A stretch of 64,000 bases of DNA from Fistulifera solaris (GCA_030295235.1 AP026127.1:124001-188000); one strand, 5' to 3'; shown: positions 2,957-32,864, counted from the first letter of the stretch. The notes: generated from the letters alone by a model not told the origin. Made by a program: numbers and translations.

Positions 2957-3002
2957 TTGCATCTGATCACATCCACCATCTGGTGGATGTGATGAGATGC
3001 AA
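2957..3002. repeat. Near-perfect 46-nt palindrome/hairpin
   Basis: ttgcatctgatcacatccacca-tc-tggtggatgtgatgagatgcaa: 22-bp arms with one mismatch. Confidence 0.8.
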
Positions 3003-3921
3003 GTTTCTTCGTCAATAAGGTCGCGTTCTACTAGTACCGTTCCAAGTGTCAATTTTTTGCTTTAGTGTTCGAAGGTGCGCGAGGTCAGAACAACAACTTG
3101 CGCCCGTGCTGCATTCAGCGGGTGTAAAAAGGATCCTACACTCTTGATCAACTGCAAATGGTGCCTCCGATTTATTCACCGAAATTGCTGTGAGACTCAT
3201 CTCTCTGCGAAAACATAATCTACCATTGAACCGCAGTTTCCTCTGCACAAAACACTGCTACTTGATGCGGCAGAAAATACGAACAAATCGTAAGTACATG
3301 TGGAAGTTTGACGGGAAACACGACAAGGAGGACCCCAATACATCCGAAGTCATGTCACTTCGCTTGCTGACAACGCCCGGGTAATTACAATCGCTACCGT
3401 AGAGTTTGATGGAATGCACCGCATTCGAATGTCACGAGAGATTGCGAAATACATCAATGCTTCGAGTGTAGTCCGCAAAAGACAACTGCCGAGGTCAAGG
3501 AGAGGATTGATTTGATTGAGGAACAAATGCATCGAGCCAATCTCTCGAGATGGAATAACCGAGAGAGATTCAGAAACTCGGATCCGAAAGTCTTTCTTGA
3601 AGAAATGACAAAGATTTGCGAGCACTACTGAAGCCTTCATTCAAATATATGACAATCGCATCTGTCCCCTTCCAACGGTCACGTCAGCTACCGTCTTTGG
3701 CACAAAATGGTGAATGCTGTGACTTTTAAGCGACAAGACACAAATGAGTTCGCTGGTAGTGTGTCGAGAGCGTCGTGGGATGCTGTCGATCGGCACTTTG
3801 CAGGAGTCGTCGAGGAGGTTAGCTAGTTTGAACTGTTCAAAAAAATTAAATAAATAAACTATATTGTAATGTACAAAACATGTAAACTCGCAGTCAATCG
3901 AATCAAAAGTAATCGCATGAC

Positions 3922-6900
3922 TCAGAGGAAATAAAGTGTGTTGGCATATCTTTCGGCGCTAATCGAACCGCCATGATCCGGCATATTTCCCGCCAACTCG
4001 GCTAACTTGTGCGCGTACTGCGTTGGTGCAGGAAGCTTGACGGGACCGGCCCAATTGGCGTAGTTGTGACACGACGACCAAGTAAGGGAGGGAATATCGA
4101 CTTGAGCAAGTCCTGCATCGCGGTGCACGGTAATAAAGCGCACGGGCTTTGGGGTGCTAAACGGCGGAGCTCTTCCATTGATGTAAAAGGTGTGGTGTCG
4201 CAAACCTTGGAAGCCTTCCACCAATGTCCCACTAGGAGAGCCGAATGGCTGCTGTCCCTCCATCGCAAAAAAACTTAGTTGCGATTCGTTTCTGGCAGAC
4301 GGCGTAAGCAAGAGGGACCGAATTTTCAATCTTTTGGTTCCTACGACTGCATCTGCACCGAGTCCTTTTCGAATACCTTTCATTTCGTCTATTGCGTCCG
4401 TAGCGAATGCACCCTCTCCGATTCCATCGCGCCAAATTACGCATGATTTAGGTTTCTCGTGAAGAAGCTTCAGTGCGGCTTTTACTGTTTGTTCCAAGCA
4501 CTCATTCAATTGATATTCTTGGCCCGGTTCTTGAACGAACGTCTTCGTGTACGTCAAAATGTCATTTTCTTTTCGAACAATCTGTACAACTATCGCAGCA
4601 ACAGACGCTTTCCCGACTTTTTCTTTAGTGATAGGATTGAACACACGGGGGGCGTGATAGACATCTATCGCCAACAAGCACAGAAGGTAAAGGAAGCTCT
4701 TTTGGGATTGAAACCCACCAGATACGTCGCCAACCTTTTCCAAAATTTGCCGAGCCACTCCTTGCAAGATGATGTTTGATCGCTTCATGTCACGCGGTTC
4801 ATCATGACGATACGTATTGAAATTCACAAACTAAGAAGGAAAGAGAGCGAAGAAGTGAGCAAGGGATCGAAAAGCAATATACGACGTCTCCTCTTACCTG
4901 AGATATGTAACCGTTCTGAGCTAATATCATCTTCACGACGGGATAATCAGGGTCCATAGAACCACGGGGTTTTGTAAAATCGAGAATAAATACGTTGGCA
5001 GGAACTTTACCAGAAAAATGCTTTTGGACAGCTCCATGATGACTTTTGTTCGCGTCTGGAACAGCGTGTTACGTAAGAAACTACATTATCATTAAAGATT
5101 CGGTGCACTTAGTTCAACACAGACTTACCCACTTTCACCACCTCGTGAGGCTTATTGCCCAAAACGAAACTTTGCATTGTGCCCGTTCACAAGGTCGCGA
5201 ATTCGATCGTACGTGTCCTTGTACCCGCCGCCTCTTCGATCAAAAATGCGCTGCACACCAAAACGACATTCAAAGTCGTTGCTTGAGACGTATTGACATT
5301 GAATTTTGCTTTGCTCAACACCGGTGCCCAATTATCTGCTTTCTCTTTCGGAACTGAAACACCAGCAGCAATAATCGAAGGGACAGGCATGACTTTGCAA
5401 GTGGCATTGATCGGCGATTGCAATGCAATACCCAAGGCGGGCAAAAGACCACCGGCACCGCTGAGTTGTCTGTGCTCCGGGAATTAGATACTCGCGGACA
5501 ACATCAATTGCTTTGTTTCTTTCTTGGGGATTGAAACCAGCAATCATCGGAAGTTTTTCTTTCACTTCGGGGTCCAGTTCATTCCCAGTCACAAGCTCAG
5601 CGGGTAAGAAAATTTTACTCTTGTTTCCGACCTTCGACAACCATGGGCTTCGCACTGGGATATTTCAATTTCATTTTCTTGCGAGTTGCAAAGTATTGCG
5701 TATGAGACGTCTGCGTCCCCGGAATCATTAAGGAGTCTGGACTATGATCGAACAGCAGATCGACAACAGGGTAGCACTTCTTGTCATACGTGGTAATAAC
5801 GGTCTCACCTATCCATGTGCGCTTTGCATTATCCATGTCGGCCTTGGATAAATTACCCTTGGAAGGCGAATAATTGCCTTTGTAAAGGGGCGTCTAGCAG
5901 CGTCGCGGTGCGAATCAGTTTGGCACGAAGATCAATCGTCAAAGTAAGACGAGCCACAGCACTTTTCGTGTTCGACTGTCGCATCAGGTTAAAGTTGCAT
6001 CGGTAGGCTTTGAAGATCTTGACACCCAACGACTGACCATTACGATCCGTTGGCTCGGTAAACGACTGTGGGTCGATAAATTCACGTCCCCATCGAGCCA
6101 TGCGTTCGCGTAAAGCACCTTCCAACGCCACGTTCGCAAACATTTCGAATTCCGCAACTGATGCCGGTTTAGTCACAGAAGTCTCGTCGGAATAGACCGG
6201 TTGATGTCCCTTTGTCGACTTTGCAAAAGTAAAAGCATGAAGTTAGTTTGACTAGCATATGCGCAGGCGCATATACTACAAAACAATGAAACATACCAGT
6301 GCTGCAAAAGCGACTGCTCATCCCGAAAAGCTTGCGTACAATCCGCGACATCGCAAGTCCGCCAACACGACATGTTCTTCGGCAGGATTCCACGCGACCG
6401 ACAATTCTTTTGGGGCCGACAGTTTTTGCATGTGCACAATGCGCATGACATCTCCGTTCGTGGTGGATCCATCACACAAGGTAAGCGGCAATTGATCAGG
6501 TGTCGATAATCCAGGAATGTCACGACCCGACATGAATGTCAAATTTTGAAAAAAGACTACGCAGGAACGGTACACGTGAGAAAGTTTTCGCTTGTTTTAA
6601 TTTCTCTTTCGTTTTACGTACCCACTCGCTTCAAATCTTCAATTTGCTGCGGTGACAGCTGCCGAGCCATAAACAGATCCCAAAACCCTGTTTGAAAGAG
6701 TTGAAAGCGTCGAGTACGTCCATCAATCAATTTGTTATTCTTATCGCGACATTCGAGACTAAACATCCAAAAGGAAAAGCTGGGAGAGACTTGAGCTGTA
6801 ATAAAAGAATGTGCGAAAGTAAGACACGATATTCTCAAAAAGTGCAGAGCGATCAAACTATTCCTCTTCAATACTCATACCTGATAGTATATTCGTGCGA

Positions 6901-7209
6901 CCACGAAGTCAATTGAGAGAAATCCGGTCCTCGGCCTCGACCTTCACGTCCACCGCGGCCTCCTCCTCCTCGAAAATCTCTACCACCGCCACCGCCACCG
7001 CCACCGCCTCGACTACTATCACCACCTCTTCCTCGACCTCCGCCTCGATTACCGTCACCACCACGTCCGCGTCCTCGATCGCTGTTTATGGGGGAAAACG
7101 AATGAGACAATCGTTCTCAGCGCAGCTCACAAGCCCTAGCGAAGAAAAGCGTACCCTCTGCCAGAAGAGCCGCGACTTTCAGCGTCCTCCCTCGACCACC
7201 GCGATGCAT
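3922..7209 (-). CDS. AGO: Argonaute/PIWI-family protein (RGG N-terminus, N domain with C2H2 finger, PAZ, MID, PIWI)
   Basis: ATG 7209 (MHRGGRG). GT-AG introns at 7082-7154, 6796-6880, 6557-6621, 6219-6296, 5056-5128, 4831-4897. PAZ-like VITTYDKKCY and IFLPAEL; MID YPVVK..SQ|FV and QILEK; PIWI (G)IDVYH, WRDGIGEG, NWAGPVKLPAPTQYAHKLA; C-terminal LYFL*. Several single-base frameshifts, probably assembly indels. Confidence 0.95.
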
Positions 7210-7859
7210 GTTTCTTATCAGCTAGTTAATAATGAGACAAATGTTAATTATGTTAAAAGGAATCAGGCATAGACATAGAAACGTGAATATTTGAGCAAAA
7301 GATTTTTTCTGTTTATTAGGTTATTGCGCTGCTGCGTTTCAAGTTTCAATCGTGTCCCGCTTTCCACGGTTTGTACAGTTCTAGACTATACTGTACCACC
7401 CAAAATATTCAACAGCCAATCAGAAGCCGTACCTGGTAGGCGGTACCACTGCGAAAAATTCATCCGCCAATCAAATGCATCGGAGCGATCGCTGATGCGA
7501 GCCGTGTTCGCTGCTGTTCGCGATGAAAAACGGGGAGACAATAAAACTCGAACAAGAGGATGTAGGAAAGGAGAAAGTGATACTTATGCGCAAGTACTTG
7601 TTTTCGCCGCGTAAGAAATGCGAGAAAATCGGAGGCGAACATGAATGAAGCGAAAGAAATGGATCGCAATCCATTTTGAGCCTGTTCTTTGAGTGCATTT
7701 TTGAGTGATTTCTCTTCCCTGTTCTGCTGAGAAGAATCATTCTTTGCAAGCGGAAGACTTGCATTTCCTCTTTGACTCTGCTTTTTCGTTGACAGATCTA
7801 CTTGACTGAAATCCACAACAATCTGTCGCCAGGCAACGCATCGAAGCGAAACGCCAATC
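7210..7859. promoter_or_regulatory. Putative bidirectional promoter between Argonaute and Dicer
   Basis: About 650 bp between divergent start codons (7209 minus, ~7860 plus); promoter activity is inferred from geometry only. Confidence 0.5.
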
Positions 7860-10800
7860 ATGAGTCGTTCTCATTCCTCTTTGCACGAGGATGTTCGACA
7901 ATTCCTCTTTGAAACGTCGGTGACGCCGGAAGACGTGGCGCAAGTTCAAGGAATTGTCGAAGGCAATTACACAAAGTGTTGCGCATTATGAGCGAGAAAA
8001 TCGAACGTCGTTCCGCTGATCCTGTCGTCGTCTGTCCATAAGAAGACCAAACACACGACCCTCAATGACGCGGAACGCGATCAGTTGATGGATTCTCTGG
8101 CGAAAACGACACACGATCCACGTTCCTATCAGCGCATTTTGTTCGAACGTGCCAAACACGAAAATATTATTGTTCATTTGGGGACCGGAACCGGTAAAAC
8201 GTGGATTGCACTATTGTTATTGCAGCATTATGTCGAACAACAACGACCCATGGTCTTTTTGGTGCCCAGTGTCGCCTTGGCGGTTCAACAACATGCCGTG
8301 TTGAGTGTGCATTTGGAGCAGGTGCAGTTGGCGTGCGCGTATCACGTTGCACCGTGTGGCGGAAGAAACTTCGAGCAAAGTCTTGGTCGCGACCCACGGG
8401 GCGATATTTGGATTTGTTGCGACATTATCCCGATCAATATTCACTCGGGCAAGTCAGTTTAATGATCTTGGATGAATGTCATCATTGTATTGGGAATTCT
8501 CCGTGCTTGACGATTTTGCGAGACTACTATCATACGTTACCACAGAATCAGAGGCCGCGTGTTGGGTTTGACCGCCTCGCCCTTAATTGCCGTCAAAGTC
8601 AATCATACCGAAGAACAATTGACGCAATTGTTGACGCAACTAGAAGTTCAAATGGATGCCAAGATTGTTGCACCGCCGGCCGATGATGAAGATAGTCGTT
8701 ATCACGAACAGGAATGTTCCGAGCATTGCATCCCGTACCGTATGGATAGTGGTGTGTCGACTAGTCCGTTGCCACGGATTCCTGCGAACAGTTTGCATCC
8801 GGCGCGTCTCAAAGAATTCAAGCAATTGGAACAGCTAGAACTCGATCTGGGGCCTTTGCCAGTGATCTGGTATTGTCGATCACTGCAGTTGAAGCGGAAT
8901 CAGTATCAAAACGAAAAACGAGAACAATTTCAAGCGGGCGCAACAATATTTGGAGCGTGTGGCGGCGTGTCGTGAAAACGCATGGGACCAGTCACAAATT
9001 ACAATGCCTCGAACAATTGTTGGAGCAAGAATTGTCGCGGAAGAAACATGCCGTGGGGGTCGTCTTTGTGCAGCGTCGGATCACGGCTTGTGCTTTGGAT
9101 CAGTCCTTTCAGCATCGGAATCATCAACAAAAGAAGAACGACTTGCAGCAAGTCCGCCATGACAAATTCAATGGTCAATTTGCGGATGCGGAAGACGACA
9201 ACATGAGCTGGGAGGGGCTATCACCGCATCAGCCATTGATTCGGTGTTGCAGTATGATTCGAAAGAGCACGGGAAGCCAAATGTTTCGTGCCGGTGCCAA
9301 GCTTTCGCAAGAGGAAATGAATCAACAGAGCGCAGCTAATGGAAGAAGAAGAAAACAACATTCGAAAGACGTTAGATGGATTGCGAAAAGGAACGTTCAA
9401 TGTCCTAGTAGCCACTTCCGTGGTGGAAGAAGGTGTTGACCTTCAAGCCTGTTCGTTTGTAATTGCGTTTGATGCTTTAACGACAATTAAAAGCTACATC
9501 CAAATGAAAGGACGGGCCCGACAAAAGAGCCAAATTTTACTTTTTTGAAAACGATCACGTCGCTGGTTTGAATCACGAAAGACGCAAGCCGCCTGGAGAA
9601 GCGCATTGAGAATGCTGTGGCAAACGAAAGTAGAAAGCAAGAGGAGAATTATCGCGGCAGTTCGTCTGGTCTGGCATTTCTCGATGTGACGCCAAAATCA
9701 AGAGCTAAGCACTGAAGAGCTTTTTGTTCTGCGCAATGGAAGTTACACGGCGGAACTAGGTGCTGTCTTTTTGAATTCGGCCAAATCCTTGTTGTATCGC
9801 TTTGCATTGAGCCAGCCCATCGATTGGGTGACCCGATCATCGAAACGTTCCTTGCAATCTTACTTACCCTTCTTGACGAGCAGTGCAACCAGCTCACACT
9901 ACCCGCTTACTGTGGAGCTGGAAATGGTTTGCGATCCATCTCGCTTCCCGAAACGACTCTCGTTATGCCGAAAAAAGATAAGCAAAGATGCTAGCGCTGA
10001 TCGCGTGCGTTCGATTGCATAAGAATGGGTTATTGTCTCGGCGATTGTTGCCCTTCTCAAGATCCGAACTCCGCCAGAAGATATTATCTTTCGTCAAGCC
10101 AAGGCCAAATCAGAATGATGTGGCAACTAGACCGACAATCTTTTCATTTCCGTCTTTGACTGACAAAACGACTTGCTACATTAATATACTTTGTATGGAA
10201 GGGGAGAGAATGGAAGAAAACGCGCAAGTCGTTTGGCAATTTTGGTAAATCTTTGGCCTTAGTTTGCTTCGAACCGTTACTGGAACCTAAAGAGATGTCT
10301 GTCATGCATCATGACCATCCTCAGTTTGGTCGATTGGCCTGTTCTATGAAAAAAAGCCGCCCGATTCAGTGCACTAAAAGCCAGATCGCGCTTCTTCGTG
10401 AATTTTTCGTAGTTCTTTTCAACGCTCGCTGGAAGAAACGGACTAAGGATGGTGTCTTCAAACTCCAGCGAATCGAACGAATCAATGATAACTCCTTCCT
10501 ATGTGCTGGGCTGCATAGATGATCAGCACAACCTGGACTGGATGTACATGCAAAAGATCGTTGACGAAAGCAAGCGTAATGCTGCTGAGTTGAAAGCTGC
10601 GGCCCAGCAAGTGTCGAAGGGGCAGCCCTTTGTCCGTCCTCGGCTCTGGATTCCGGATCATGATCCGATGAGCGTTTTGTAGTGTATGGCGGCGGGTTTC
10701 AGAAAGATAGTGAAAAAGTTGATGACAAAAATGAATCGATTTTCTGTCAATACTGCTGGCAACTTCCCATCACTATCTTGCATAAAGATGGCAGCTCATG

Positions 10801-12463
10801 CGAGGCAGCGACCACGCAGAAGCTTTTGAGTCCAGCATTCCCATCTGCCCTTTTTTGAAAGGACGAATGCTCCCAAAATCTATATTCCATGAAGCCCCTC
10901 TGGCAGGCGCGCAGTGTATTTCGAGGCTTTGCTGTTACCGCAGTCGTTGTACTTCCCTCGAGCGAATACAAACAACGCGAGCATTTGTTGAGCATTGTCG
11001 CAAGCACATTCCCATTTTGGCCCAATGTCTCGAAGAAAACAGTACAGATGCGGAGATCGCTACTCTTCTGACAGCCGCTAGTTGTGCAGGCGAAGATAAT
11101 TATGAACGCTGGGAATGGTTTGGCGATGCAGTCTTACAGTTGGTAATGACCGACGTTTGTTTCCGATCACCACATCTCCGACCCTGGATGCGCGGCTTTC
11201 ACGAAGGAGATCTGGATGTGATTCGGTCCGCATTGTGTTGCAACGATCGTTTGGAAGAAGCTTGCCTCATGCTGTCCATCGATCGATTCCTCTTCACCTC
11301 CGAGCTTGCTCGTGGTCAATGGACCCCGCGCGTCATGAAGTTGGTGTTCAGTGAAAGTACAAGCTCGAAAAGTAGCAGTAAAGCACCCCGAGGCAAGATT
11401 CTGGCCGATGTGATAGAGGCTATACTCGGTTTGGTGTATATGCGTTGCGGTGGCTATCCAGCCGCCCGTCCGGCCGATGAGCTGGGCTTGACGATAGAAT
11501 GGGATCCTTCCATATCGTACACTGAAGCCATGAATGGAAGCCGCTCCCCTCCTGCATCGTTGGAACAGACTATATCTCAGGGGACTGGTTATATTGCGTT
11601 TACGCGCCCGGCTTTACTGCTCGGGCGTTCACCCATCCCACTTGTTTGGACGTTCATGTCGCTGCCTCACGAACGTTTAGAATGGATCGGTGATGCTGTC
11701 TTGGCGTTGGCTGCCCGGTTGTGGATATTTGATCAGTACAGCGACAAGGAGGATGGCATGTCGGTCGGACGCATGGTGACTTTCGAAAAGCAGTTTGTTT
11801 GCAATTCGACTTTGGCATTTTTGGCCTGTCGAATGGGATGGCACCGTCACTTCACGTCATCACGATGCTACCTTACCAGGTCGTATCGAAGCGTATTGGG
11901 CCAGTGTGAGCCGAGAGAGTCGCGGCATTTGGAGCACACAGCCTCCCAAAGCGTTGGCGGATGCCGTGGAAGCCGTGTTAGGAGCCGTCTTTGTCGACGG
12001 AGGATGTGCGGCCGGAGTGCAAGCGGCGCACGAACTACTGCGTCCTTTTCTTGAAACAGTCATTGGGAACGAGGATCAGATCCGTCACCCGCAACAAGAG
12101 TTGTTGGAATTGTTGGGAGATATGGCAAAGATATCGGTAAAGTTGCGTGATGCAGATGAAGACGAGGACGATAATGGGCAAGACACATTTGGTCTGACTG
12201 CGGTTGCTACTATTTCACTATGGGGAGTCCCTGTTTTGACGTGCGTCGCCGACCATCCGCCCCGCTGCGACACATCGAGCTTGTGCTTTGCTATTGTCGA
12301 TTCTGGAAAAGGACAGTTCTTGGATGCAACAGTTGCAAGCGATTCGAAACAAACAGATTGGGTTGCCGAAGAAACAAGTGACAGAATCTTTAAAACGTCA
12401 GAAACAGTAATTGATGTACATAAAGACTTCTATAGTCCTATTGAAAGTTTCATTCCATCTTAG
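7860..12463 (+). CDS. DCR: Dicer (DExH helicase, helicase-C, DUF283/dimerisation domain, platform/PAZ-like region, RNase IIIa, RNase IIIb, possible dsRBD)
   Basis: PRSYQ, HLGTGTGKT, LVPSVALAVQQ, LDECHH, LGLTASP, VVFVQRR, VLVATSVVEEGVDLQAC, SYIQMKGRAR; SAKSLLYRF and ALIACVRLHKNGLL (DUF283); NYERWEWFGDAVL...LADVIEAILG; HERLEWIGDAVL...LADAVEAVLGAVFVDGG. Start inferred at atcATG 7860; many frameshifts; exact ends uncertain. Confidence 0.93.
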
Positions 12464-12857
12464 AATAGACTCTTGTTGGAGACCAAGCAGCTCGTCGCTT
12501 TAGTTTGGTTCACAACGATGATGTATTCCATTATCAACATCAACAGCGGTCAGAGGTCTGTAAGCTACTTATGGAACCATATAATAGATCGGACCGGTAC
12601 ACATTATTTTTACTTTGCCTTTGTCTCTCACGCCATTGCATCGAAAATCGAAAGCAAATAATAAACATACTTCTTCTGTTTCTATAGGATGTTGTTTATT
12701 CCTTCCTAATGGTATCATATTTAGATCTTCAATCATATTGAAAAGAGACAATGATTCATTTCCCGTTTGCTGTATAGGAGGCCTGATGATTGCTGTTACT
12801 TTGTAAAGATCCCCAGGCAGTCATCGTCCACTCTACCCGGCCGATAACCGTGAAATC

Positions 12858-14156
12858 ATGACATCACGGCTTTCTTTGTATGTTCTCTGTTTCATGATTT
12901 CCATCCTGTGCTATGAATTGATGGCTCGGAATCGTGTTGTTCCTTCAAATACTCCGGAATCTACCATGACGACGAAGAAAACAGAATCGTTTCAGGAAAT
13001 CTCGAAAGAAGAATTGAACAATTATAATTCCCCGCAGGATCTCAATCCAAATTTAACAAATGACGACGCCCTCGACATTGTGTATCGACAAGAGAATATG
13101 GTGAAGTTCTTGTATCATGCGCTGCGAAAAGGAAATGTGCTTTGTCGTGACATGAAACATCGTCGAAATGAATCATCTCTCGTAGCGTATCGCTTCGAAT
13201 TAAAATGCGCCGATATGTACGAACATCAACACATGGGAACCGGGAATATTCTACAAACATTGTATGGCGTCCGACTCGCGGCACGAGCCATGGGGAACAT
13301 TCACGTCCAAATGTGTTGCCTTGATGCCCGAGAGCAGCAATCCGCCTTGGTGTTGCCATGGATCATGGGAAACTTTCCGCCGACGAGACATACAGATACC
13401 GGAGGTGCCGGATGCTGTTTGTAAGTCACTAATGTATGCGCCTATTCATTGGCTGATAGAAGAAGAGATTCAATACGAGCTACGACGCATGGCCATTGCT
13501 TTGGTTGGTATTCCCTATCCAACACATCCTGCATCTGATTTTTGTGTTGTCGGCCGATCGAGAAACAGCATTGCAAGTGCCCATGCCGACCGTACCATTG
13601 CTCTCCAATGTGGAAGTAGACGATGTTGCAATTCATTTCCGTTGTGGTGATATTATCGAAAAACGACCTCATCCCGATTACGGATATGCGCGCTTTTCTT
13701 TCTTGCTCCGATACATATCGGCGGAAGCGCGATCGATTGGGATTGTGACACAACCCTTTCAAGGACAGAATCGAGGTATCGACGGTACTACACATACGCG
13801 ATGTTCGATTTTGGTCGGGCCTTGCAGCAGTATTTGCAAGGGCACTTCCCTCGGGCAACCGTCCATATTCGAAACTTCGCCGAATGAGACCATTGCTTTG
13901 TCGTTTGCCCGATTCATTCTGGGCGAATCAAAGTGTGGCGGGTGATTCCACATTTGTGACATTGCCCTTTTGGCTTCCTTTGGCAGTTCGTGATTTGGCC
14001 AGGCCCCAATTTATGATGGACGATGCGTTGAAACAGTATGGTAGTGCGCAGTTTATCGAATCTGACGACAAAATGACGTCCGTGCGATTGTTCAAGCTGT
14101 GGAATGAAATTGATGGTCAACAGCAAATATTAGATTGGTTTATGGGCATTGAGTGA
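12858..14156 (+). CDS. Type II membrane protein, putative fucosyltransferase-like (GT11-type motifs)
   Basis: N-terminal TM anchor, then GTGNIL, VAIHFRCGD (HxRxGD) and DSTF motifs across frameshifted ORFs 12858-13424, 13264-13650, 13496-13945, 13884-14156. Confidence 0.55.
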
Positions 14157-15810
14157 TCTTTCAATACGGCTGAGTCATATCTTTTGGAGAATTATTTGGG
14201 GAGTGACTCAAGACACATTGACCTGTCAAAGAAAAAGTTTGTTTCTCGTATTTTTAATTCATTTGGGTTACAAATTTGAGAGATCATGACAATTGAGCAA
14301 CTGTAATCCTAACGATCTTGCGGGTTCTTTGGTGAGTGTTAATATAATATCTCCTTGTTGACCACGAAGGATGATCGTTCAAATAAGGTACGCGGCGCCT
14401 TCATGCTTGCATCAGTCTCCAATTGCAAATTGCATGGCCAAGATAGGAATAGACCCAAGACTAAAACGGGAACTACCAGTACGACTCTCACGTGCAGTAT
14501 CGACTTAATGAGAAACGGTTCTTTTGCTAAATTGTAGCCTTCACCGCAGTGGTTATTCGTACGAGCATCAATAGGGAATGGCTTTAGCTGCAAAAATGTT
14601 TTGGAGGTGGACAGTTGTGAGAAGATGCCGTCGTGCTGTCTGCCGTCAACGAAGCAGCGATCGACAGAAAACCATCCATCGCCTTTCTAGACGCTGCCGC
14701 CCCCCGAGGCTCATTTGTGTGGATGTCTACCATCGCTTTGATTGGTCCTTATTCACCAGATGCAGAGTTACGGATCCGATTATTTGGCTAACGCAATCAC
14801 AAACATTTAATAGGGAGTATATTTTTAAAACAAACTTTTAACTTATCGAATTATGGATGATGATATATAGCACAGCAAAGGCGACAGCAAGTGACATCAA
14901 AGATCATGCATTCAAAAGAACTTGTTGCACAACCCAAACGGCGACAATTGGATGTGAATACGAATAGCGGAAGAGTTGTACCAAGTACGTGAATTCAGAT
15001 CGACGTACTCAGCGGGTGGCGAAACGAGGACCAAACGTGGGTGAGCTAAGAGAGTTCCCAGCAACAGAAGAGGAACGAGGCCGAAACGAAGCTGGGACTG
15101 CATGTTCTTCCTCCAGCACATTCTCTACGCAATACAAACTGCGCTCGAAATGGCAGCACCTTACCAGTACTCTCGTAGCGAAATCGTCTCTCTCGCAATT
15201 CAGCCTCGAGTCAGTGCTTCAAATGATCGAAGCGACGAAACTGTGTCAGTCAATTGTAAGCTCAGCATCAGACTGACCTAGTTAATCGACTCTTATCTCT
15301 CTCTAGAGAGGGGAGCCCGCGCATGTCATCGTTCCCAACATGAGGCAGAGATGATTTTCAAGAAAATGAAAGAATAAGCCGTGCACCTCAAAACCTCAGA
15401 AGACGCCGTGTGACATCGTATCCTACTCTGTAGAACGAGTATCCGATACCGGATAACTGACGTGGGTTTGCGTTTGCGTCGTTTTGCACAATTTTCGGTT
15501 CCGTATTCCGTTCCACGACCAAAGACACTGGAAGAAACTGTACTGCAGCAAATAGTCGTTCCCTTGGATTTCCTAAGTAAGTTTGGCTCGGTATTGTTAC
15601 TTAGTGGCGAGGTCCATCAAATTTTCATTTTCTAGCCAGTGACTTAAGCGAAATAACTCATCAAAAGTATTTTAGCTACAAGTAGCGTTACCAGGTACAC
15701 TCGTTGTGACTCTGCCACGCTGGCAAGCCCGCCTTGTTCAACGTCATTGTATCTTTGGCTTGCGGCGGACCTCGCACCTCGCGTGTCCGCAATCTCTCGG
15801 AAGCATCGAG

Positions 15811-25200: not shown

Positions 25201-25604
25201 AAAGAGAACACACGATTCTCACTCGGTAGAATAGTAGAAACGCATAACGAATATCAACTTACAGATACAGCTTGAATTTCCAACAGAAACACGTCATTTG
25301 CTACATAGTTGAACGACTTAATCTGATGTGTTGAACTATCATAATACGGCTGACTGTCCGAGAGCTGGTGTTGCTGGATCGAAGTTTCTCCTACCGTTTC
25401 GTAGTGTTCACAAGTCAATGAAAGGAGGTGCCCTTCCTACTTCGTAACAAAGAAGGCCCGCTGAGAGAAATCATTCATACATCAAATACTAGCTACAAAT
25501 ACAAAGTAGAATATATCACTGTGCAAACACGGAGTTCTAATAAAAGTTCGAACGAACTCTACCCCACAAGAGAAATAACTACCACATATAGAACGTCCAA
25601 GAAT

Positions 25605-27528
25605 TTAGGCCGCCACTTCTTCTTCATCCTCGTCCTTGATCTTGTCCGTCTCGCCGTGTTCTTCATCGTCATCCGGAAGACCCGTATGTTCCATCAAGGC
25701 CGTCACCTTGGCCTTGAGGAATTCCATATCATCCGGGAGATCCTTCATGGTAAGACGGACGCGTTCGCGACGTTCAAAGCACGTATTGAGAGTCTGCTTG
25801 CCGTCTTTGAAACGCCACCAGTACGCCAAGTAACCCAAGGACAAGATGAGAACCACCACCAAGAGCGATCCGAGCACCGTCAGTCCCTTGCTACCGTCCG
25901 AAAAGAGGAAAGAGATACCCAAACAAATCGCAGGAAGGATAACAAACATGACGAAAATGTACAAGAACGGGAATCCACGCCACTGACGGGTGGCTTTTCC
26001 GAGCTTGACGAGCGGCGTGAATGGGCATCGCGCGCATAAAGGGGATTGGGTAAAAGATGGCAATACCGGTAATGTTAAAGAACAAGTGGCACATGGCGAC
26101 TTGCAAGGACTCGGTTCCTTCCGTGACCATGGAAGCCAACAAAGCCGTGACGGTAGTACCAATGTTGGATCCCAACGTCAAGGGGTACATTTGGTTCAAA
26201 TGAATCGCACCAATTCCCACGAGAGGGGTCAAGGCGGAAGTGACGACGGACGAGGACTGAACCAAGATGGTCAAACCGCAACCCACGGCAATCGCCACGT
26301 ATCCATTGACATTGGTGGCCTTGTGCACGACACGGGTCGACAAGCCGAGCAACATGCGCTGCAAGACATTCACCAAAGCCAACAAGCAGGTAAAGAGAAT
26401 GACAATGGAGATGAAGAAAACAACTCCACCAGAGACCTTGTCGTCCTTGGCAGTGGCATTGGGCTGGAAGAAGGAGGGGCAGGTGTTCTTGTCGCTGTTG
26501 CACGAAATGAGACCAACTTGCTTGCACTTGGAGGCGGTGGGTTCTCCTGGCTCGCAAAGAACGGGATAAAAGCCATCACCGTCGTCACAAGAGCCGGTTC
26601 CCTTGGCCACGGCAGTAATCAACTTGCTGTTGGACTTGATGATGCGTTCTCCGAGCGGTGCAACGAACTTCTTGACGGGTCCTTCCCAAGTTTCACCATC
26701 CGACGTCGAGGCATTCTTGACCATGGCTCCCGTCAAGTGACGAAGATAACCGGTTGCAATCTCGAGGGGGAAAAGGACGCACACGGTCATGTAGTTGAAC
26801 ATATCGTGCACGGTGGCACCGGCAAAGGCGCGTTCCAACTGATCCGCATCTCCCAATTGACCCAAAGACACCAACGTGTTTGTGACGGTAGTACCAATGT
26901 TGGCTCCCATGACCATGTAAATCGCTTGACGAACCGAAATGGCCGAACCGACGAGCGAGACAATGATGGAAGTGGTGGTCGAAGACGACTGCAACAAGAC
27001 CGTCGACAAGATACCCACCATGAGACCAGCGACGGGGTTAGTTTCGTCACCAAACAAGGCACCGGCGGTGCAGCCCGTCATGACCTTGGCGCTGGTGCCC
27101 ATCAATTCGAGACCAAAGAGGAAGAAATAGAGGAAGAAGCAGACGACGAGGAATCCTCCAAACGCGTAGCCCCATTCCGTAGGCGAGCGTACGCAGCAAG
27201 CTTGAAAGACTTCACCCCAGGTGGCATCGGCCGGTTCTTCGTCCGCGTTGAAATCATCATCACCAAAGTGAATCGATCCAGTAGGACGATCCTTGCGCGA
27301 GGTGATGGGCTTCTTGGGTTTGTTATCTTCGTCCGACTGTGTTGTGAAGAATGGGGATGTGAGAGCGAGGAGCGAGCGCAAAAAATAAGCAACAGAGAGA
27401 AGAAGCGAAAGATAGTGTATTTATCAAGAAATAACCGTTTTCGAATAAAAGAAGCAATACGCTGATGGAAAGCCCGCGCTGAAGAAGCAAGAACATTAGC
27501 CACGAGAGCAGATACAATCACTTACCAT
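25605..27528 (-). CDS. Sodium-dependent phosphate cotransporter (SLC34/NptA family), copy 1
   Basis: QSSSTTTS, GANIGT, RAFAGATVHDMFN, QSSSV, LGSNIGTT motifs; ATG 27528 followed by intron 27337-27525; one frameshift near 26010. Confidence 0.93.
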
Positions 27529-27719
27529 TGCAAATAGAAAGAGTTTTCAACAGAGACTGACCTGAAGGAATGCAAAAAAAACGTTTTCAGATCCAAATTG
27601 TGTTTTTGACACGATCTTGATGAAAAGAAAGGAGTTGGTGGAGCTGGAGCCCATTTGGTTGGCATCTCGTACATCTCCTACAGATAGAATCTTGTCAACG
27701 AATCAACAAGATTCGTGTT

Positions 27720-27737
27720 GCGAGCTCCGAGACTTCT
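27720..27737. promoter_or_regulatory. 18-bp motif conserved upstream of both SLC34 copies
   Basis: GCGAGCTCCGAGACTTCT is identical at 27720-27737 and 33081-33098, about 200 bp upstream of each ATG. Confidence 0.5.
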
Positions 27738-28014
27738 CAAAAAGAAAGTTTCTGCGTCAACAAGATCATCAAAAAACAGTTTTTGAAGGAGTGATGCTTT
27801 TTGTGTGTGATTGTCTTTGGATTTTTGGATCCTTCATGGTCGCCAACGAAAAGCATTTTCGTTTGCGTGGGTGCGGAAAGTGGTGGAGAAGAAGCATCGC
27901 GCGGTGCGCGCGATTATTACCAGGTACCAGGTACCAGGTACACCGCGGTTTAGGCGCGGATTTGCGCGAACAATGGATCATGCGAGTCCCGTAGGAGCAG
28001 TCAAGAGTCAAGAA

Positions 28015-28058
28015 GTTACCGGTTACCGGTTACTGGTACCGGTACCGGTACCGGTACT
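28015..28058. repeat. (GGTACC/GGTTACC)n microsatellite
   Basis: Tandem ggtacc-like units; similar tracts at ~27918-27942 and ~29682-29714. Confidence 0.8.
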
Positions 28059-28128
28059 GTATAATGAGCCAGTCGATCCGGATCCGGATCCTAGCGAGGC
28101 GTAGAAAGACGCACTTGTAGAAGTGGTA

Positions 28129-29645
28129 CAGCTGTTTGCTCCTGGTCACCGACCTATGTAAAATACGTAAAAAATGTACCACGCAGTACAAAGTCTACGT
28201 CCTATTTTCACGTAGAAGCTAAGTCCTCTTCACGAAAGCCAGTAATTCAACTCAAAAACTTTTTTTAAGACTAAAAAATCAATGATAACGACTTTAATCA
28301 TCTTTGGAAGAGATGTCCTGTCGTCATTTCTGCAGAAATGTCACCCTCCTTATGGAAAAAATGATCGGTAAACTATTTACTGGCATTCCCGAGTCAGTCA
28401 CGCATCACGGCAACTAGCGCCTGACAGACCATCGCAGTCGAGACGCTCATTGTTCCGCGCATAAAGATCTCGCTTTTCTTTCGGCTTTCGGCAACCTACT
28501 CATGGCCATTCTTTTCATGTTGCAGAGCTTAAAGCCAACGTTATAAAAAGTAAGTTGTAAGTACATGTAACTATTTCTTTGATGTTGAGGCGATGCAGCG
28601 CTTTTTAATCTGTTTCATCCTCTGATTCGCTCTCGGACGAAAAATCAGGAAGTACGAAATCGTCCATATCGTCGTACTCCATAATGTTGTCTTCGTCACT
28701 TTCGTCTTCATCCTCGAATTCGTGCTCCGCTTTCTGTGGTAGTTGTTTCTTCTTTGAAAGGAAATTATTGTCTGTTGTTGTTTTCACCACCATCTCAATG
28801 AAGCCTGCATCAAAGTCCAGCGCACAGCGGTGCGTCTTAAACTTTTCATGAGTCGTTCAATTTCAAGGTGCGAGATGGTGACTATTTTCTTTCCTTTAAG
28901 CTTTGCTTTCTCTCGTTTTGCTTTGTAACGCTCTTGTACTAACAAACGATTGATACCCAATTCTTGAAAGGGTATAACGCCATCATCGCTGTCACTGCCG
29001 TCATCTTGTAAAGATGAATTCTGCTCCAATTGTTCACGGCGGTTGTAGGTATCGAAGCGTGAATTATTGTTTTTGACACCATGTAAAACCAGATAACGCG
29101 CTGGTTGTTTGTGTTTTCTCCGAATGGACACTTCATGTATTGACGAAATCGAAAAATACCTTTGTCGTTGTCCATGTTATCACAATAATAGAAAGTCTTT
29201 GAAATGGCTTTATTTAGCAATGCTCGTGTCAATTTTGTTGAACCAAGCTCTCTTTGAAGTGAGGGGTGATGATCTCTCAATATCCGAAAGAAATATTCGT
29301 CGCAGATCCATTTGTCTTGATAGTCCGCAAACGCATCAGTGCAGACAAATTTGTGCCAACTTTCAGCGACAATTTTGAGAACCGACATGTTGCAGGTCAG
29401 GCACGATATATATACCAATCGACGCCGATTAAAAAAAAAGAAACAATATATGTTTAGATCGTGCCTGACTAAAGTAGGCACGATGTATTATTAGCAATGT
29501 AATGATAGGATCGGCGTTGTCGAAAATAACACGAAATTTATCTCGATGGAAAGAGGGCGGAGGAGTTTTTGAACCGGCACTCAAATCCGTTGTGGTAGGT
29601 TTCTACAGAGCTTACATGGGTTCTGGGCCATCATGCAAACAGCTG
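28129..29645. mobile_element. TA-flanked TIR DNA element (Tc1/mariner-like ends), probably non-autonomous
   Basis: TA|CAGCTGTTTGC...GCAAACAGCTG|TA; the inverted similarity continues imperfectly for ~55 bp (atgtaa and taccac blocks); 1517 bp. Confidence 0.65.
28605..29388 (-). CDS. Orphan ORF inside the TIR element (frameshifted, acidic C-terminus)
   Basis: ORFs 28939-29481 (ATG 29388, MSVLKIVAESW), 28784-29131 and 28605-28793 overlap in series; no DDE motif recognised. Confidence 0.5.
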
Positions 29646-30285
29646 TACTGGTACTTGTATACTGTAAATGCACGGGAAGCTGTACTGGTACTGGTACCGG
29701 TACCGGTACCGGTAGTAGTCCGCGTCTGTCTGCAGTCTGCCTGTCGCTTTCAACCGGATCGACGTCCAGACGAGGTTCGAACGAAAAAGCTAGAGTAGCT
29801 AGGAAGAGGAAGATTACTTTCTCGAAGTGTGAAAGTAGCACTCAGCTACTCATTACTAGAAAATTGAAACAAAAGTGAATTTTATCTTTCACTATAATTT
29901 ACAACTTCTACTTGTATTTCTATGTCGTTTGTAGCTGCAGCAAGTTCGAAATTCGATTTCCGAACATCCTAGATGTTCATTCGCTCTCGCAGGATAGTCA
30001 TTTTGCAAATCATCAAGTTTTTGATACATGTGATTTCGTCTCCTACAAATCACTCAAATAATATCCGTGCTCCTTGTATGTACTTAGTCGCTCATCGTCG
30101 AGCCAGGAAAGACCCACGATCGTAGGAGAGCTGTCGCCGGGGCCCTCCGTCTGCCGGTCGGGTGTCTTGCACAAGTGTGTCTTTTTTCTCCGCGCACAAT
30201 CAGCAAGTTTCTCCAAATGCTTTCTTTACTGTGGTACCGTCGTACCTATTCCGTGCTCCGTTTCTTGGCTGAGTCGATCGATCAA

Positions 30286-30720
30286 CTATACAATTTTCTC
30301 CTTACTGGGTCGGTTAAGTAGAGAGTGTTCGTCTTGATGTTTCGTTTGCCGTATTTCTTCTCGACATTGCCAGTCGGTTGTATGGTAACGTTGTAATAGC
30401 GGCGTCGACGGCAAAGGATTGATAGCAGACCCGACAATGGCCATTACATTCAAAAGGTGACAGCGAAACAGCCAAGCGGAATTCCAAGAAAATAAAGCAA
30501 AGATAGAACTAAAGAGAGCAATGTCTTGCGTCATTTGGAGAGAGGATGATGAATGACTATCGTGTGGATACAGCGTCGATAAGGTCACCGACCAGCCGGC
30601 ACACGCCGCGAGACCGCTCCAGTACATGGCAAAGGGATCGCGGGATGGCGTCGATGGCGTCGAAAAGGTTCGTTTGCTGCAGAGTTTTGGTTGTAAGAGT
30701 CGCGTGTATCGAAATATCAT
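30286..30720 (-). CDS. Divergent MPC-like protein, copy 2
   Basis: Paralogue of 24808-25200: YWSGLAACAGW, MTQDIALFSS, LFRCHLLNV, YHTTDWQC; mitochondrial-type presequence MIFRYTRLLQPKLCSKRTFS. Confidence 0.6.
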   Translation of the reverse strand: MIFRYTRLLQPKLCSKRTFSTPSTPSRDPFAMYWSGLAACAGWSVTLSTLYPHDSHSSSSLQMTQDIALFSSIFALFSWNSAWLFRCHLLNVMAIVGSAINPLPSTPLLQRYHTTDWQCREEIRQTKHQDEHSLLNRPSKEKIV

Positions 30721-31051
30721 TTTGTTATTGGAAGGTATTGAAGGCTACACCTGGTGCTTCACAAAACAATAACAAAGCAAACTTTGCTCTTCATCATCGA
30801 CGGTTATATTATGTATGTGCGTCTCGCTAATCGTGATGTCATCGTGTCCGCGCGCAGGCCGGAAGTCATTACAGGGCGCGGTGGCGCGCGACACGACTTG
30901 AAGCGCCAAACGCCAAACACGACCGAAATCCCCTGACCCCTATGGAAGGTCCAAAGATTGAAACTAGGACTTCGTCGTAAGAAATCTGTCAATCAATCAT
31001 CTAATCATGCAAAATAACAAGCTTAGTACTATCAATACAATGAGCTTCCTA

Positions 31052-32864
31052 TCATCTTTCATCATCGGCACTCGCTTCATCATCCTCACTGTCCGGCAGA
31101 CGCGTATGTTCGATCAGCAAGGCAATCTTGGCCTTGATGTACTCCATATCCTTGGGGAGATTTTGCAACGTCAACCTAACGCGTTCGCGTCGTTCAAAAC
31201 GATCGCTACAATACCGTTTTCCGCCCTGGAAACTCCACCAGTAAAAACCATACGCACAGCTGATCACCATGATTGCTACCGAAAAGGAACCCAGAACAGT
31301 GAGCCCCATACTGCCGCTGGAGAACAAAAGGAGAGACCGAACGAAGTTATCGGGAACAAAAAGAACATGAAACCAATGTACACAAAGGGAAAGCCCCGCC
31401 ATTGCCGCGTGGCTTTTCCGAGCTGACGAGCGGCCTGTAGAGGAAAGGCCCGCATGAAAGGAATAGGATAGAAAATAGCAATTCCAATCAGATTGAACAA
31501 CAAGTGACACAAGGCAACTTGAATGGATTCGGTTCCTTCCGTGACCATGGCCGCCAATAGTGCCGTAATGGTGGATCCAATATTGGCGCCCAGCGTCAAC
31601 GGGTACATGTGATTCAACTTGATTACACCAATGCCCACCAGCGGAGTTAAGGTCGAAGTCACGACCGAAGAGGATTGTACCAGCAGTGTCAGACCACAGC
31701 CAAGAGCCATATTGACATAGCCATTTAGATTGGTAGCTTTGTGAACAATACGGGTCGATGATCCCATCAGCATACGCTGCAAGATATTCAAGAGCGCAAA
31801 TAGGCAAAAGAAGAGCATGACCACGGCCAGTGTAAAAACGACTCCTCCCGAGATTTTGTCTTCTTTAACGGTCGCATTTGGTTGAAAGAACGACGGACAG
31901 GTATTTCGTTCCCGATCGCAGGCAATCAAACCAACTTGAAGACATTTATTATAAGAAGGCTCCCCCGGCTCGCAGAGAATGGGATAAAAGCCATCGCCCT
32001 CTTCACACGAGCCTTCTCCATGCGCAACCGCCGTCAACAACTCCTTGTTGGCCCGAATGATACGATCCCCCAACGGCGCCACAAATTTCCGAATCGGTCC
32101 TTCCCACAATCCTCCGTCGGTCGTAAACGTATGCTGCACCATGAGTCCGGTCAATCGCCGCAAATATCCGGTCGCAATTTCGAGCGGAAACAAGACAGCG
32201 ACGGTCATCATATTGAACATATCGTGCACCGTCGCCCCGGCAAACGCCCGTTCCAGTTGATCCGCATCACCCAATTGCCCCAACGACACAATCGTATTGG
32301 TGACCGTCGTCCCAATATTCGCTCCCATGACCATATAGATGGCTTGCCGCACCGAGATCGCCGAGCCCGCCAACGATACCACAATGCTGGTGGTGGTCGA
32401 AGAGGACTGCAACAAGACAGTAGACATCAAGCCCACGGTCAATCCGGCCACCGGATTCGTTTCATCCCCAAATAAAGCACCGGCCGTGCAACCCGTCATG
32501 ACTTTGGCACCGGACCCCATCAATTCGAGGCCAAAGAGAAAGAAATACATAAAAAACAGGACACCACACAAGCCTGCGGCAGCGCGCATCCACTCTTGCG
32601 ACGTCCGGACACAGCACGCTTCCAAGACTTCACCCCATGTCGCGTCTTCGTACTCATCATCATCATCGTCATCATCCGCGTACGGTAACGAGTGATGCAA
32701 GGACGAATGCAAGTGGTCTTCTCGAATGGGTTTGTGTGTGTCACTTTCCGTGTCGGACTACCAGGATCGAACGGCAGGAATACATGAGAACGAAGAAAGT
32801 AAAGATGCCATACAACACAGAAATACAAGAAAAACACAAGAATAGTCACTGAGAAACTTACCAT
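31052..32864 (-). CDS. Sodium-dependent phosphate cotransporter (SLC34/NptA family), copy 2
   Basis: Same motifs as copy 1; ATG 32864 followed by intron 32758-32861; frameshift near 31320. Confidence 0.93.

Follow-up and report, generated by a model that had tools for sequence, protein, structure and literature searches.

A stretch of 64,000 nucleotides from the diatom Fistulifera solaris, referred to here as the window, contains, back to back and divergent, genes for a PIWI-like Argonaute (minus strand) and a helicase-type Dicer (plus strand; Table 1). A Pfam search of stop-to-stop open reading frames placed PAZ and Piwi domains on the minus strand; its plus-strand matches were DEAD/ResIII, Helicase_C and two Ribonuclease_3 stretches. 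The coding sequences were located through exact matches of two public proteins to the window: P0106 (GAX24459.1, ‘aubergine’), with 923 of its 941 residues mapping exactly from 7209 down to 3925, and P0088 (GAX24458.1, ‘endoribonuclease Dicer’), with 1463 of 1502 mapping from 7860 to 12407. The exons agree with these two F. solaris entries. Domains and mapping together bear out the identities that the first-pass annotation gave to both genes, and the mapped start codons, at 7209 for the Argonaute and 7860 for the Dicer, confirm its divergent orientation and refine its gap of about 650 bp to exactly 650 bp. Its end of the locus, 12463, has to be corrected: the Dicer coding sequence stops at 12407, and the later position was given because a frame opened by an indel had been followed. 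The window was also said to lack an RdRP, and of the 87 ORFs outside the locus that reach 120 aa, not one matches an RdRP family, a negative weakened by the many indels that break frames.

Table 1. Features of the Argonaute-Dicer locus, in window coordinates
Feature	Position	Strand	Remarks
PIWI-like Argonaute CDS	3925..7209	-	stop codon 3922-3924; seven exons, six introns
Argonaute exons, approximate	7209-7154, 7080-6904, 6793-6623, 6557-6299, 6212-5130, 5056-4898, 4830-3925	-	
Arginine/glycine-rich (RGG) N-terminal exon	6904..7080	-	translation of ORF 6868-7116, 100% identical to P0106 residues 19-77
C2H2-like zinc-finger insert (CxxC...H.....H), N-terminal region	6165..6368	-	spans intron 6213-6298
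PAZ domain	5560..5839	-	Pfam PF02170, P0106 residues 350-443, E=1e-10
Piwi domain	3985..4948	-	Pfam PF02171, P0106 residues 623-921, E=5e-37; includes intron 4831-4897
Spacer between start codons	7210..7859	.	650 bp; bridged by contigs from X1 and X2
CCAAT-box repeat copy 1	7403..7427	+	direct repeat D2
Palindrome TACCTGGTA	7430..7438	.	sits between the two CCAAT repeats
CCAAT-box repeat copy 2	7454..7478	+	direct repeat D2
Helicase-type Dicer CDS	7860..12407	+	stop codon 12408-12410; intronless
DExD/H helicase core (DEAD/ResIII)	8115..8582	+	Pfam, P0088 residues 87-242; motifs GTGTGKT, DECHH
Helicase C-terminal domain	9354..9518	+	Pfam PF00271, P0088 residues 499-553
RNase IIIa domain	11104..11451	+	Pfam PF00636, stretch 107-222 of ORF 10786-12054
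RNase IIIb domain	11671..12004	+	Pfam PF00636, P0088 residues 1258-1368

Misassembly had been named as a risk to the observation, and the evidence speaks against it. Two contigs from separate studies, one in run X1 (covering 6299-8277) and one in X2 (6195-7913), span the junction and differ from the window by only 4 to 5 letters; X2, from a wetland metagenome of another study, is the independent witness, since X1 may come from the window's own sample. In the public annotation, GAX24458.1 and GAX24459.1 are consecutive on one 149,689-bp contig, their homeologues GAX18424.1 and GAX18425.1 share one of 268,757 bp, and another NCBI contig of 18,665 bp holds fragments of both genes. Errors are clearly frequent in the window, where the two genes together show 34 frame hops, but in view of these contigs an assembly artefact is extremely improbable.

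The same 34 frame-breaking single-base indels relative to the public proteins, 11 in the Argonaute and 23 in the Dicer coding sequence, could instead be taken as real, making this copy a decaying pair of pseudogenes. Between the hops, however, the translation is letter-perfect over the residues counted above, which fits sequencing error and not decay. In addition, the X1 and X2 contigs, at full depth, lack eight one-base extra letters that lie within the genes, four per gene; they are 8 of the 12 indel entries listed, with 54 further entries beyond these. Because the read-derived contigs lack these eight letters, we read the frameshifts as assembly errors, and a decaying gene pair is hardly credible. 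A nanopore-only assembly of F. solaris without short-read polishing has been described (preprint 10.1101/2021.11.10.468027). As a practical point, the window sequence cannot be translated naively at this locus.

The start of the Argonaute is backed by orthologues: MHRGGRG also opens the homeologue, and a similar arginine/glycine-rich stretch begins other diatom Argonautes. Six gaps of 65-110 nt in the P0106 mapping are read as introns, and contigs from two further runs, X3 and X4 (90-95% alike), skip exactly the predicted 77-nt intron, whose site is given for them as 6213-6297 in the window. These contigs, whose kind is guessed to be RNA, reach the Argonaute only and are uninformative on the spacer and the Dicer; on that guess, the Argonaute, or at least its homeologue, is expressed and spliced. 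In X1, likewise, no homeologue contig at 90% or more covers the spacer, a gap that carries no weight as evidence. Both the PAZ and the Piwi match pass the curated cut-offs, and both domains recur in all 12 diatom relatives. The zinc-finger insert gives a sub-threshold zf-C2H2_2 match (P0106 residues 200-241) that is present in 4 of the 12, and its H228 is nearly invariant in the diatom Argonaute alignment.

Four residues, D695 (GVDVxH), E744, D774 (RDG) and H913 (AHKLA), are invariant in 12/12 diatom Argonautes, and by their motifs we take them to be the Asp-Glu-Asp-His slicing tetrad. Three of them align with the matching motifs of the solved Piwi 9iiy, and the predicted protein keeps a DEDH-type catalytic set. 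Among solved structures the top 11 distinct relatives are all PIWI-clade proteins, with E values from 1.5e-28 (9iiy) to 6e-19, while human Ago2 follows at E=1.2e-10. Judged by these alignments, the protein called Argonaute resembles PIWI-clade more than AGO-clade proteins. PMC2724275 assigns diatom Argonautes to a separate clade, far from both the classic AGO and the classic PIWI group.

The Dicer start is likewise backed by orthologues, with HEDVRQFLFETSV directly after the methionine in three Dicers. The best solved relative is Arabidopsis DCL1 (7eld, E=7e-64), to which the helicase core aligns; the helicase region also matches Dicer, RIG-I and LGP2 helicases. Motifs of RNase IIIa (ERWEWFGDAVL, ADVIEAILG) and RNase IIIb (ERLEWIGDAVL, ADAVEAVLG) align to DCL1 as well, so that both domains show ExxExxGD and DxxE with acidic residues in line with those of the Arabidopsis enzyme. 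The predicted Dicer is full-length, with two RNase III domains that are catalytically complete. DUF283 (PF03368) appears at its expected place (672-735) in all five aligned diatom Dicers, below the curated cut-off (best E=1.9e-4), and no PAZ or dsrm match was found by Pfam at E<=1 in any of the five. No domain is assigned to some 300 residues that separate DUF283 from RNase IIIa, nor to about 100 past RNase IIIb. The only long gap in the P0088 mapping, 45 nt at 10123-10167, was considered as an intron and rejected, since the same DNA is absent from an X2 contig; it is a strain indel. The public model GAX24458.1 appears fused to the next gene.

Since the two genes diverge across 650 bp, the spacer must carry both core promoters and both 5′ UTRs. 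Nothing else was thought to lie between them, and this holds: the spacer has no Pfam match above cut-off, no Rfam match (none at E<=1 over 6800-8200) and no tRNA (none over 3000-13500). Four ORFs within or overlapping it give no Pfam match above the curated cut-off, the single MukB hit (E=0.07) falling far below. The distance between the start codons fits the usual description of a bidirectional promoter, whose divergent genes have start sites within about 1 kb of each other. In mammals such promoters typically contain CCAAT boxes, and here a CCAAT-box direct repeat (25 nt, 80% identical, 51 nt from start to start) flanks the palindrome symmetrically. Its pattern, ATTCANCNGCCAATCA, which was derived after the repeat was seen, has 2 matches in 64 kb against 0.03 expected. 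The palindrome agrees with reported F. solaris promoter motifs: CCWGGTA and ACCTGGTA are enriched in promoters of one subgenome (PMC5935921, Table S4), and CCWGGTA has 17 matches in the window against 5.8 expected, a count reached in 0 of 100 shuffles. The CCAAT-TACCTGGTA-CCAAT cluster at 7403-7478 is the best candidate for a shared control element.

The first-pass annotation went further and proposed a shared bidirectional promoter and a possibly co-regulated defence module. Read in this way, the locus would be a selected, co-regulated RNA-silencing module, in which a bidirectional promoter would drive both genes in fixed proportion and selection would keep them linked, so that the enzymes would be passed on and regulated as a unit. 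Divergent orientation, the short spacer and the CCAAT cluster around a palindromic promoter motif all speak for such a module. The motifs, however, were picked out post hoc, and GCCAATCA taken by itself shows no enrichment: it has 4 matches where 2.84 are expected, and at least 4 occur in 37 of 100 shuffles. It is plausible that the two genes share some control elements, though we would place it somewhat short of probable.

Conservation offers the module a further argument, which on inspection is neutral. In the second subgenome, too, the two genes are annotated on one contig with successive accession numbers, from which alone the orientation of the homeologous pair is inferred; the Dicers are 87% and the Argonautes 95% identical. 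As the genes are neighbours there as well, the linkage predates the divergence of the two parental lineages. Retention in both subgenomes is nevertheless the default expectation for almost any neighbours in close parents, and so says nothing about selection. Documented conservation stays within one genus. The only data point outside Fistulifera reads as negative for linkage, the Chaetoceros tenuissimus Dicer (GFH46084.1) and Argonaute (GFH61989.1) being some 16,000 accession numbers apart (PMC8613185).

Searches for further linked pairs found none within their reach. Five long (at least 60 kb) contigs of other diatoms carry a helicase-type Dicer, and none could be size-matched to the 87 Argonaute hits listed; this comparison is indirect and runs between incomplete hit lists, from which Seminavis Argonautes, for example, are absent, and its one match was the F. 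solaris 268,757-bp contig. In a metagenome scan with generic helicase patterns, tblastn detected an Argonaute in 0 of 79 loci. Those with diatom-like Dicers (L001, L002, L004, L005, L006 and L026) are too short to bear on linkage, having less than 600 nt upstream. Scans of genome contigs and viral contigs with an Argonaute alignment found no relative, and the words Dicer, aubergine and argonaute do not occur in the readable supplement of the homoeolog-expression paper.

For eukaryotes at large the arrangement is not new. In Chlamydomonas reinhardtii, DCL1 (Cre02.g141000) and AGO1 (Cre02.g141050) are adjacent and divergent, in print since 2008 (Casas-Mollano 2008, Genetics, as quoted in PMC10226591), and PMC10226591 also reports that C. 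incerta and C. schloesseri conserve the layout. What stands of the novelty first proposed for the pair concerns diatoms, for which no description was found in the literature covered on Dicer/Argonaute linkage or diatom RNAi, a coverage that stops short of the comparative study of Grypioti 2024 (New Phytol). The F. solaris pair has the Chlamydomonas-type layout: a Dicer-like and an Argonaute gene are immediate, diverging neighbours in a unicellular alga, the arrangement is reported for close relatives in Chlamydomonas while consecutive accessions point to it in both subgenomes of F. solaris, and in each case a link in function is suspected rather than proven. In Chlamydomonas, AGO1-bound small RNAs longer than 26 nt are independent of DCL1 (PMC10226591), and the adjacency is not matched there by a demonstrated joint DCL1/AGO1 pathway. 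The F. solaris genes differ in that the Argonaute partner is PIWI-like, the lineage is stramenopile and the Dicer has a full helicase. Because green algae are stated in the same text to have no PIWI proteins, the diatom pairing most likely arose independently. An independent recurrence, reported as conserved in two sister species of C. reinhardtii, can be counted in favour of a selected module, yet with conservation of the diatom pair documented within one genus and C. tenuissimus unlinked, we consider such a module rather unlikely.

Other systems are instructive for their differences. In the Asgard archaeon ‘Ca. Harpocratesius repetitus’, the HrAgo1 locus (rnc - hrAgo1 - helicase; PMC11217426) also sets RNase III, helicase and a PIWI-like Argonaute side by side, and HrAgo1 itself is a detectable relative of the F. 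solaris Argonaute (PDB 8r3z, E=2.4e-13). There the genes form a prokaryotic, operon-like cluster in which RNase III and helicase are encoded separately, whereas F. solaris has two eukaryotic units on opposite strands, and nothing suggests that the diatom linkage was inherited from such an arrangement. Phaeodactylum tricornutum and Thalassiosira pseudonana possess the same diatom Argonaute family, but the P. tricornutum Dicer (Pt2_48138) is a short form that combines a dsRBD with two RNase III domains and lacks a helicase, and in T. pseudonana helicase-dsRBD and RNase III lie in separate genes (PMC2724275). No Dicer-Argonaute linkage is reported for either species in the main text of that paper. 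The fungal PRA1-ZRT1 pair likewise consists of two adjacent, divergent genes of one process; its arrangement is recorded on both sides of the split between two fungal phyla (PMC11185503), while the diatom pair is documented within one genus.

A bolder conjecture would join these threads. Head-to-head Dicer-Argonaute linkage may have evolved at least twice in unicellular algae, once with an AGO-type partner in Chlamydomonas and once with a PIWI-like one in Fistulifera, with a shared bidirectional promoter at the CCAAT-TACCTGGTA-CCAAT cluster keeping the enzymes in step, as a eukaryotic counterpart of the Asgard RNase III-Argonaute-helicase clusters. Taken as a whole, we hold this to be distinctly unlikely.

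The reading that we prefer, and that is probably correct, is simpler: these are intact, functional-looking genes and true head-to-head neighbours. We see in them an ordinary divergent pair of a compact genome, one that arose independently of the Chlamydomonas pair as a second case of that type. With a gene number that we take to be about 10,000 per subgenome, the chance of two named genes adjoining is about 2 in 10,000, a figure for a pair chosen after the fact. By homology, the Dicer, with its DExD/H helicase, weak DUF283 match and two RNase III domains, would cut double-stranded RNA into small RNAs. The Argonaute, with an RGG-rich N-terminus, C2H2-like finger, PAZ and a Piwi domain bearing the DEDH-type set, would load small RNAs and slice complementary RNA. 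Silencing works in F. solaris: antisense knock-down has been reported there (PMC8536745).

Functionally related genes rarely adjoin in eukaryotes. The spacer is a compact, testable promoter fragment, and F. solaris, an oil-rich diatom, has the locus twice in each cell, in diverged copies. Given these copies, the reported knock-down and Cas9 editing in F. solaris, the subject of PMC13276009, the idea of co-control is cheap to test. Should the pair prove restricted to Fistulifera and not co-expressed, it would be a curiosity. A second independent Dicer-Argonaute pair, on the other hand, would hint that joint control of the silencing enzymes is advantageous in single-celled algae.

The Argonaute and Dicer genes lie on opposite strands with their start codons back to back. 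Pfam searches of the ORFs (stop to stop, 3.9-12.5 kb) placed PAZ and Piwi on the minus strand; the plus strand has two Ribonuclease_3 matches, DEAD/ResIII and Helicase_C, together with a weak match to Dicer_dimer. The Piwi ORF had 87 homologue matches, headed by Fistulifera solaris 'aubergine', and the RNase III ORF had 13, headed by 'endoribonuclease Dicer'. Two public contigs carry such a pair: one of 149,689 bp has the 941-aa Argonaute GAX24459.1 with the Dicer GAX24458.1, and one of 268,757 bp has GAX18425.1 with GAX18424.1. The diatom is a hybrid (allodiploid), and the two contigs hold its homeologous copies of the locus. The window carries the GAX24459.1/GAX24458.1 copy, not the other homeologue, as determined by tblastn and exact mapping. 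Exact protein mapping also bears out the 650-bp gap between start codons reported in the first-pass annotation, with the spacer at 7210-7859. GAX24458.1 is 1989 aa long, and its residues 1544-1989 map to 12816-14153 (+); the 1502-aa Dicer form (P0088) ends at 12407, where a stop codon follows, and the longer model looks like a fusion running into the downstream gene. ORFs in this region 3' of Dicer had no Pfam match.

Features of the locus and its surroundings (nucleotide positions in the window unless residues are given)
Feature	Position	Strand	Remarks
Argonaute CDS	7209 down to 3925	minus	923/941 residues exact; six introns, 65-110 nt
Dicer CDS	7860-12407	plus	1463/1502 P0088 residues exact; no introns
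CCAAT-box direct repeat, copy 1	7403-7427		25 nt, 80% identical to copy 2
CCAAT-box direct repeat, copy 2	7454-7478		25 nt, 80% identical to copy 1
Palindrome TACCTGGTA	7430-7438		flanked by the two CCAAT repeats
PAZ	Argonaute residues 350-443		Pfam
Piwi	Argonaute residues 623-921		Pfam
Na+/Pi cotransporter genes	25894-27420 and 31279-32757	both minus	about 5 kb apart
Ty3/gypsy-type retrotransposon remnant	about 39360-41540	minus	reverse transcriptase, RNase H, integrase in consecutive broken frames

The adjacency is real and not a misassembly, as the junction is bridged by contigs from two public sequencing runs. The X1 contig (1972 nt) spans 6299-8277 and differs from the window by 5 letters, and the X2 contig (1710 nt), from a wetland metagenome in a different study, spans 6195-7913 and differs by 4. 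X1 could derive from the very sample that gave the window, so that the independent witness is X2. Another NCBI contig, of 18,665 bp, carries fragments of both genes.

Exact mapping of the public proteins reveals 34 jumps of reading frame (Argonaute CDS 11, Dicer CDS 23); each is of one or two bases, and identity between jumps is perfect. True gene damage was considered as an explanation and rejected: X1 and X2 both lack, at full depth, eight extra letters that the window has in the two genes (4267, 5462, 5628, 5887, 8343, 8404, 8936 and 8975), being eight of the 12 indel rows listed out of 66 in all. On this basis we attribute the frameshifts to assembly errors and regard the genes as intact. 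A preprint (10.1101/2021.11.10.468027) describes a nanopore-only F. solaris assembly with nanopolish as the sole polishing. Judged against read-derived contigs and public proteins, single-base indels occur about every 150-250 bases across 3500-13000, a density that probably holds for the whole window, and ORF-based readings of the window are unreliable. A 45-nt stretch of Dicer (10123-10167), present in the window and X1, was also evaluated as an intron; it is missing from the X2 metagenome DNA contig as well as from P0088, and is instead an in-frame, 15-codon strain difference.

The spacer was said to be empty, and nothing detectable lies in it: it has no Rfam match, no tRNA by ARAGORN, and four ORFs, none with a Pfam match above the curated cut-off. 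Both CCAAT-box repeats sit near its middle, and their pattern, which was defined post hoc, matches twice in the 64 kb, both times here, against 0.03 matches expected. GCCAATCA by itself is not enriched in the window. CCWGGTA matches 17 times against 5.8 expected, about three-fold, a count reached in none of 100 shuffles, and it fits motifs for which strong enrichment is reported among the promoters of a single subgenome of F. solaris (PMC5935921, Table S4). As a control element shared by both genes, the CCAAT-palindrome cluster is no more than a candidate, if a reasonable one. The palindrome TACCWGGTA also occurs at 27918-27940, 2740-2748 and 15689-15697; among these occurrences are three copies in tandem, some 0.5 kb upstream of a gene for a Na/Pi cotransporter.

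The evidence for expression consists of contigs only; none of the runs is recorded as RNA, and those guessed to be RNA are X3 and X4. Contigs in these two are 90-95% alike to the window, and therefore derive from the homeologue; they skip 6213-6297, with six letters in its place. The skip matches the predicted 77-nt intron exactly and, on the guess that X3 and X4 are RNA, shows both transcription and splicing of the Argonaute homeologue. Antisense knock-down is reported to work in F. solaris (PMC8536745).

In the Argonaute, D695, E744, D774 and H913 are invariant across 12 aligned diatom Argonautes, and in a sequence search of solved structures three of the four line up with catalytic motifs in a Piwi of known structure. 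The closest solved relatives are 11 distinct PIWI-clade sequences (E from 1.5e-28 to 6e-19), followed by Asgard HrAgo1 (2.4e-13) and human Ago2 (1.2e-10). Since the best matches belong to the PIWI clade, 'PIWI-like' would be a better label for this protein than 'AGO'. Its N-terminal region holds a zinc-finger-like insert, CxxC-x12-H-x5-H (residues 200-241 of the 941-aa protein; 6165-6368, minus strand), that is conserved in diatom Argonautes, with sub-threshold C2H2 matches in 4 of the 12 and one weak match to zf-C2H2_jaz, a dsRNA-binding family. We know of no discussion of this insert. Nitzschia inconspicua has three Piwi-domain genes with accessions eight apart on one chromosome (KAG7361404.1, KAG7361412.1 and KAG7361420.1), which suggests a locally triplicated segment. 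Other diatom Argonautes are KAG7355808.1 of N. inconspicua, GKY93658.1 (MPSEU_000333200) of Mayamaea pseudoterrestris, one of Nitzschia sp. Nitz4 at scaffold129:31071-34237, and 47611 of Phaeodactylum tricornutum, whose Dicer is 48138.

The Dicer comprises a DExD/H helicase, Helicase_C and two RNase III domains, both of which match Arabidopsis DCL1 (7eld, E=7e-64) at the acidic residues. Its DUF283 match is sub-threshold and present in 5 of 5 relatives, and Pfam found neither PAZ nor dsRBD. A profile search listed 131 relatives, among them full-length helicase Dicers from Seminavis, Epithemia and Amphora and many other diatom proteins of about 1300 aa with the helicase and no RNase III. The helicase-type Dicer of Seminavis robusta is Sro263_g102230 (CAB9506327.1; reverse strand, 25366-31719 of an 83,277-bp contig), that of Epithemia clementina ACA910_021553 (KAL7572338.1) and that of Amphora coffeaeformis gene 9 of scaffold12214. 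The proteins with no RNase III agree with the split or short Dicer forms of Thalassiosira and Phaeodactylum described in PMC2724275. To judge from these proteins, diatom lineages seem to have undergone repeated splitting or fusion of the Dicer gene.

The neighbouring genes are unrelated: two Na/Pi cotransporters, which look like a tandem duplication, PsbP, Snf7, a PX-domain protein and a Ty3/gypsy element. As the first-pass annotation had stated, no RdRP is visible: the window's 87 remaining ORFs of 120 aa or more include no match to an RdRP family.

The Argonaute and Dicer accessions are consecutive in both F. solaris subgenomes. Neighbours are expected to remain so in closely related parents, and retention in two subgenomes thus shows age, not selection. 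The only published Dicer/Argonaute accession pair, from Chaetoceros tenuissimus (PMC8613185), is far apart. A metagenome scan gave 79 loci, none with an Argonaute by tblastn; its diatom-like Dicer loci are short, with less than 600 nt upstream, and this count has no bearing on linkage. Comparison of the Argonaute and Dicer match lists gave no second contig-length coincidence among the matches listed, and a scan with the Argonaute alignment gave no relative in prokaryote and viral contig collections. The first-pass annotation knew of no description of the pair in diatoms, and none appears in the literature searched, which includes neither Grypioti 2024, the most relevant comparative paper, nor the supplements of De Riso 2009. 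The initial observation is confirmed, and its interpretation is partly supported.

An adjacent, divergent Dicer-like/Argonaute layout was already in print in 2008 for Chlamydomonas DCL1/AGO1, as given in PMC10226591, which also states that PIWI proteins are absent from green algae. The Chlamydomonas partner is AGO1, whereas that of the diatom would be PIWI-like, and on these grounds the two pairings look independent in origin. The same paper reports that long small RNAs bound to Chlamydomonas AGO1 do not need DCL1; adjacency is no proof of a joint pathway. The diatom pair adds to a layout that, on this source, was already known from Chlamydomonas, and its significance is modest.
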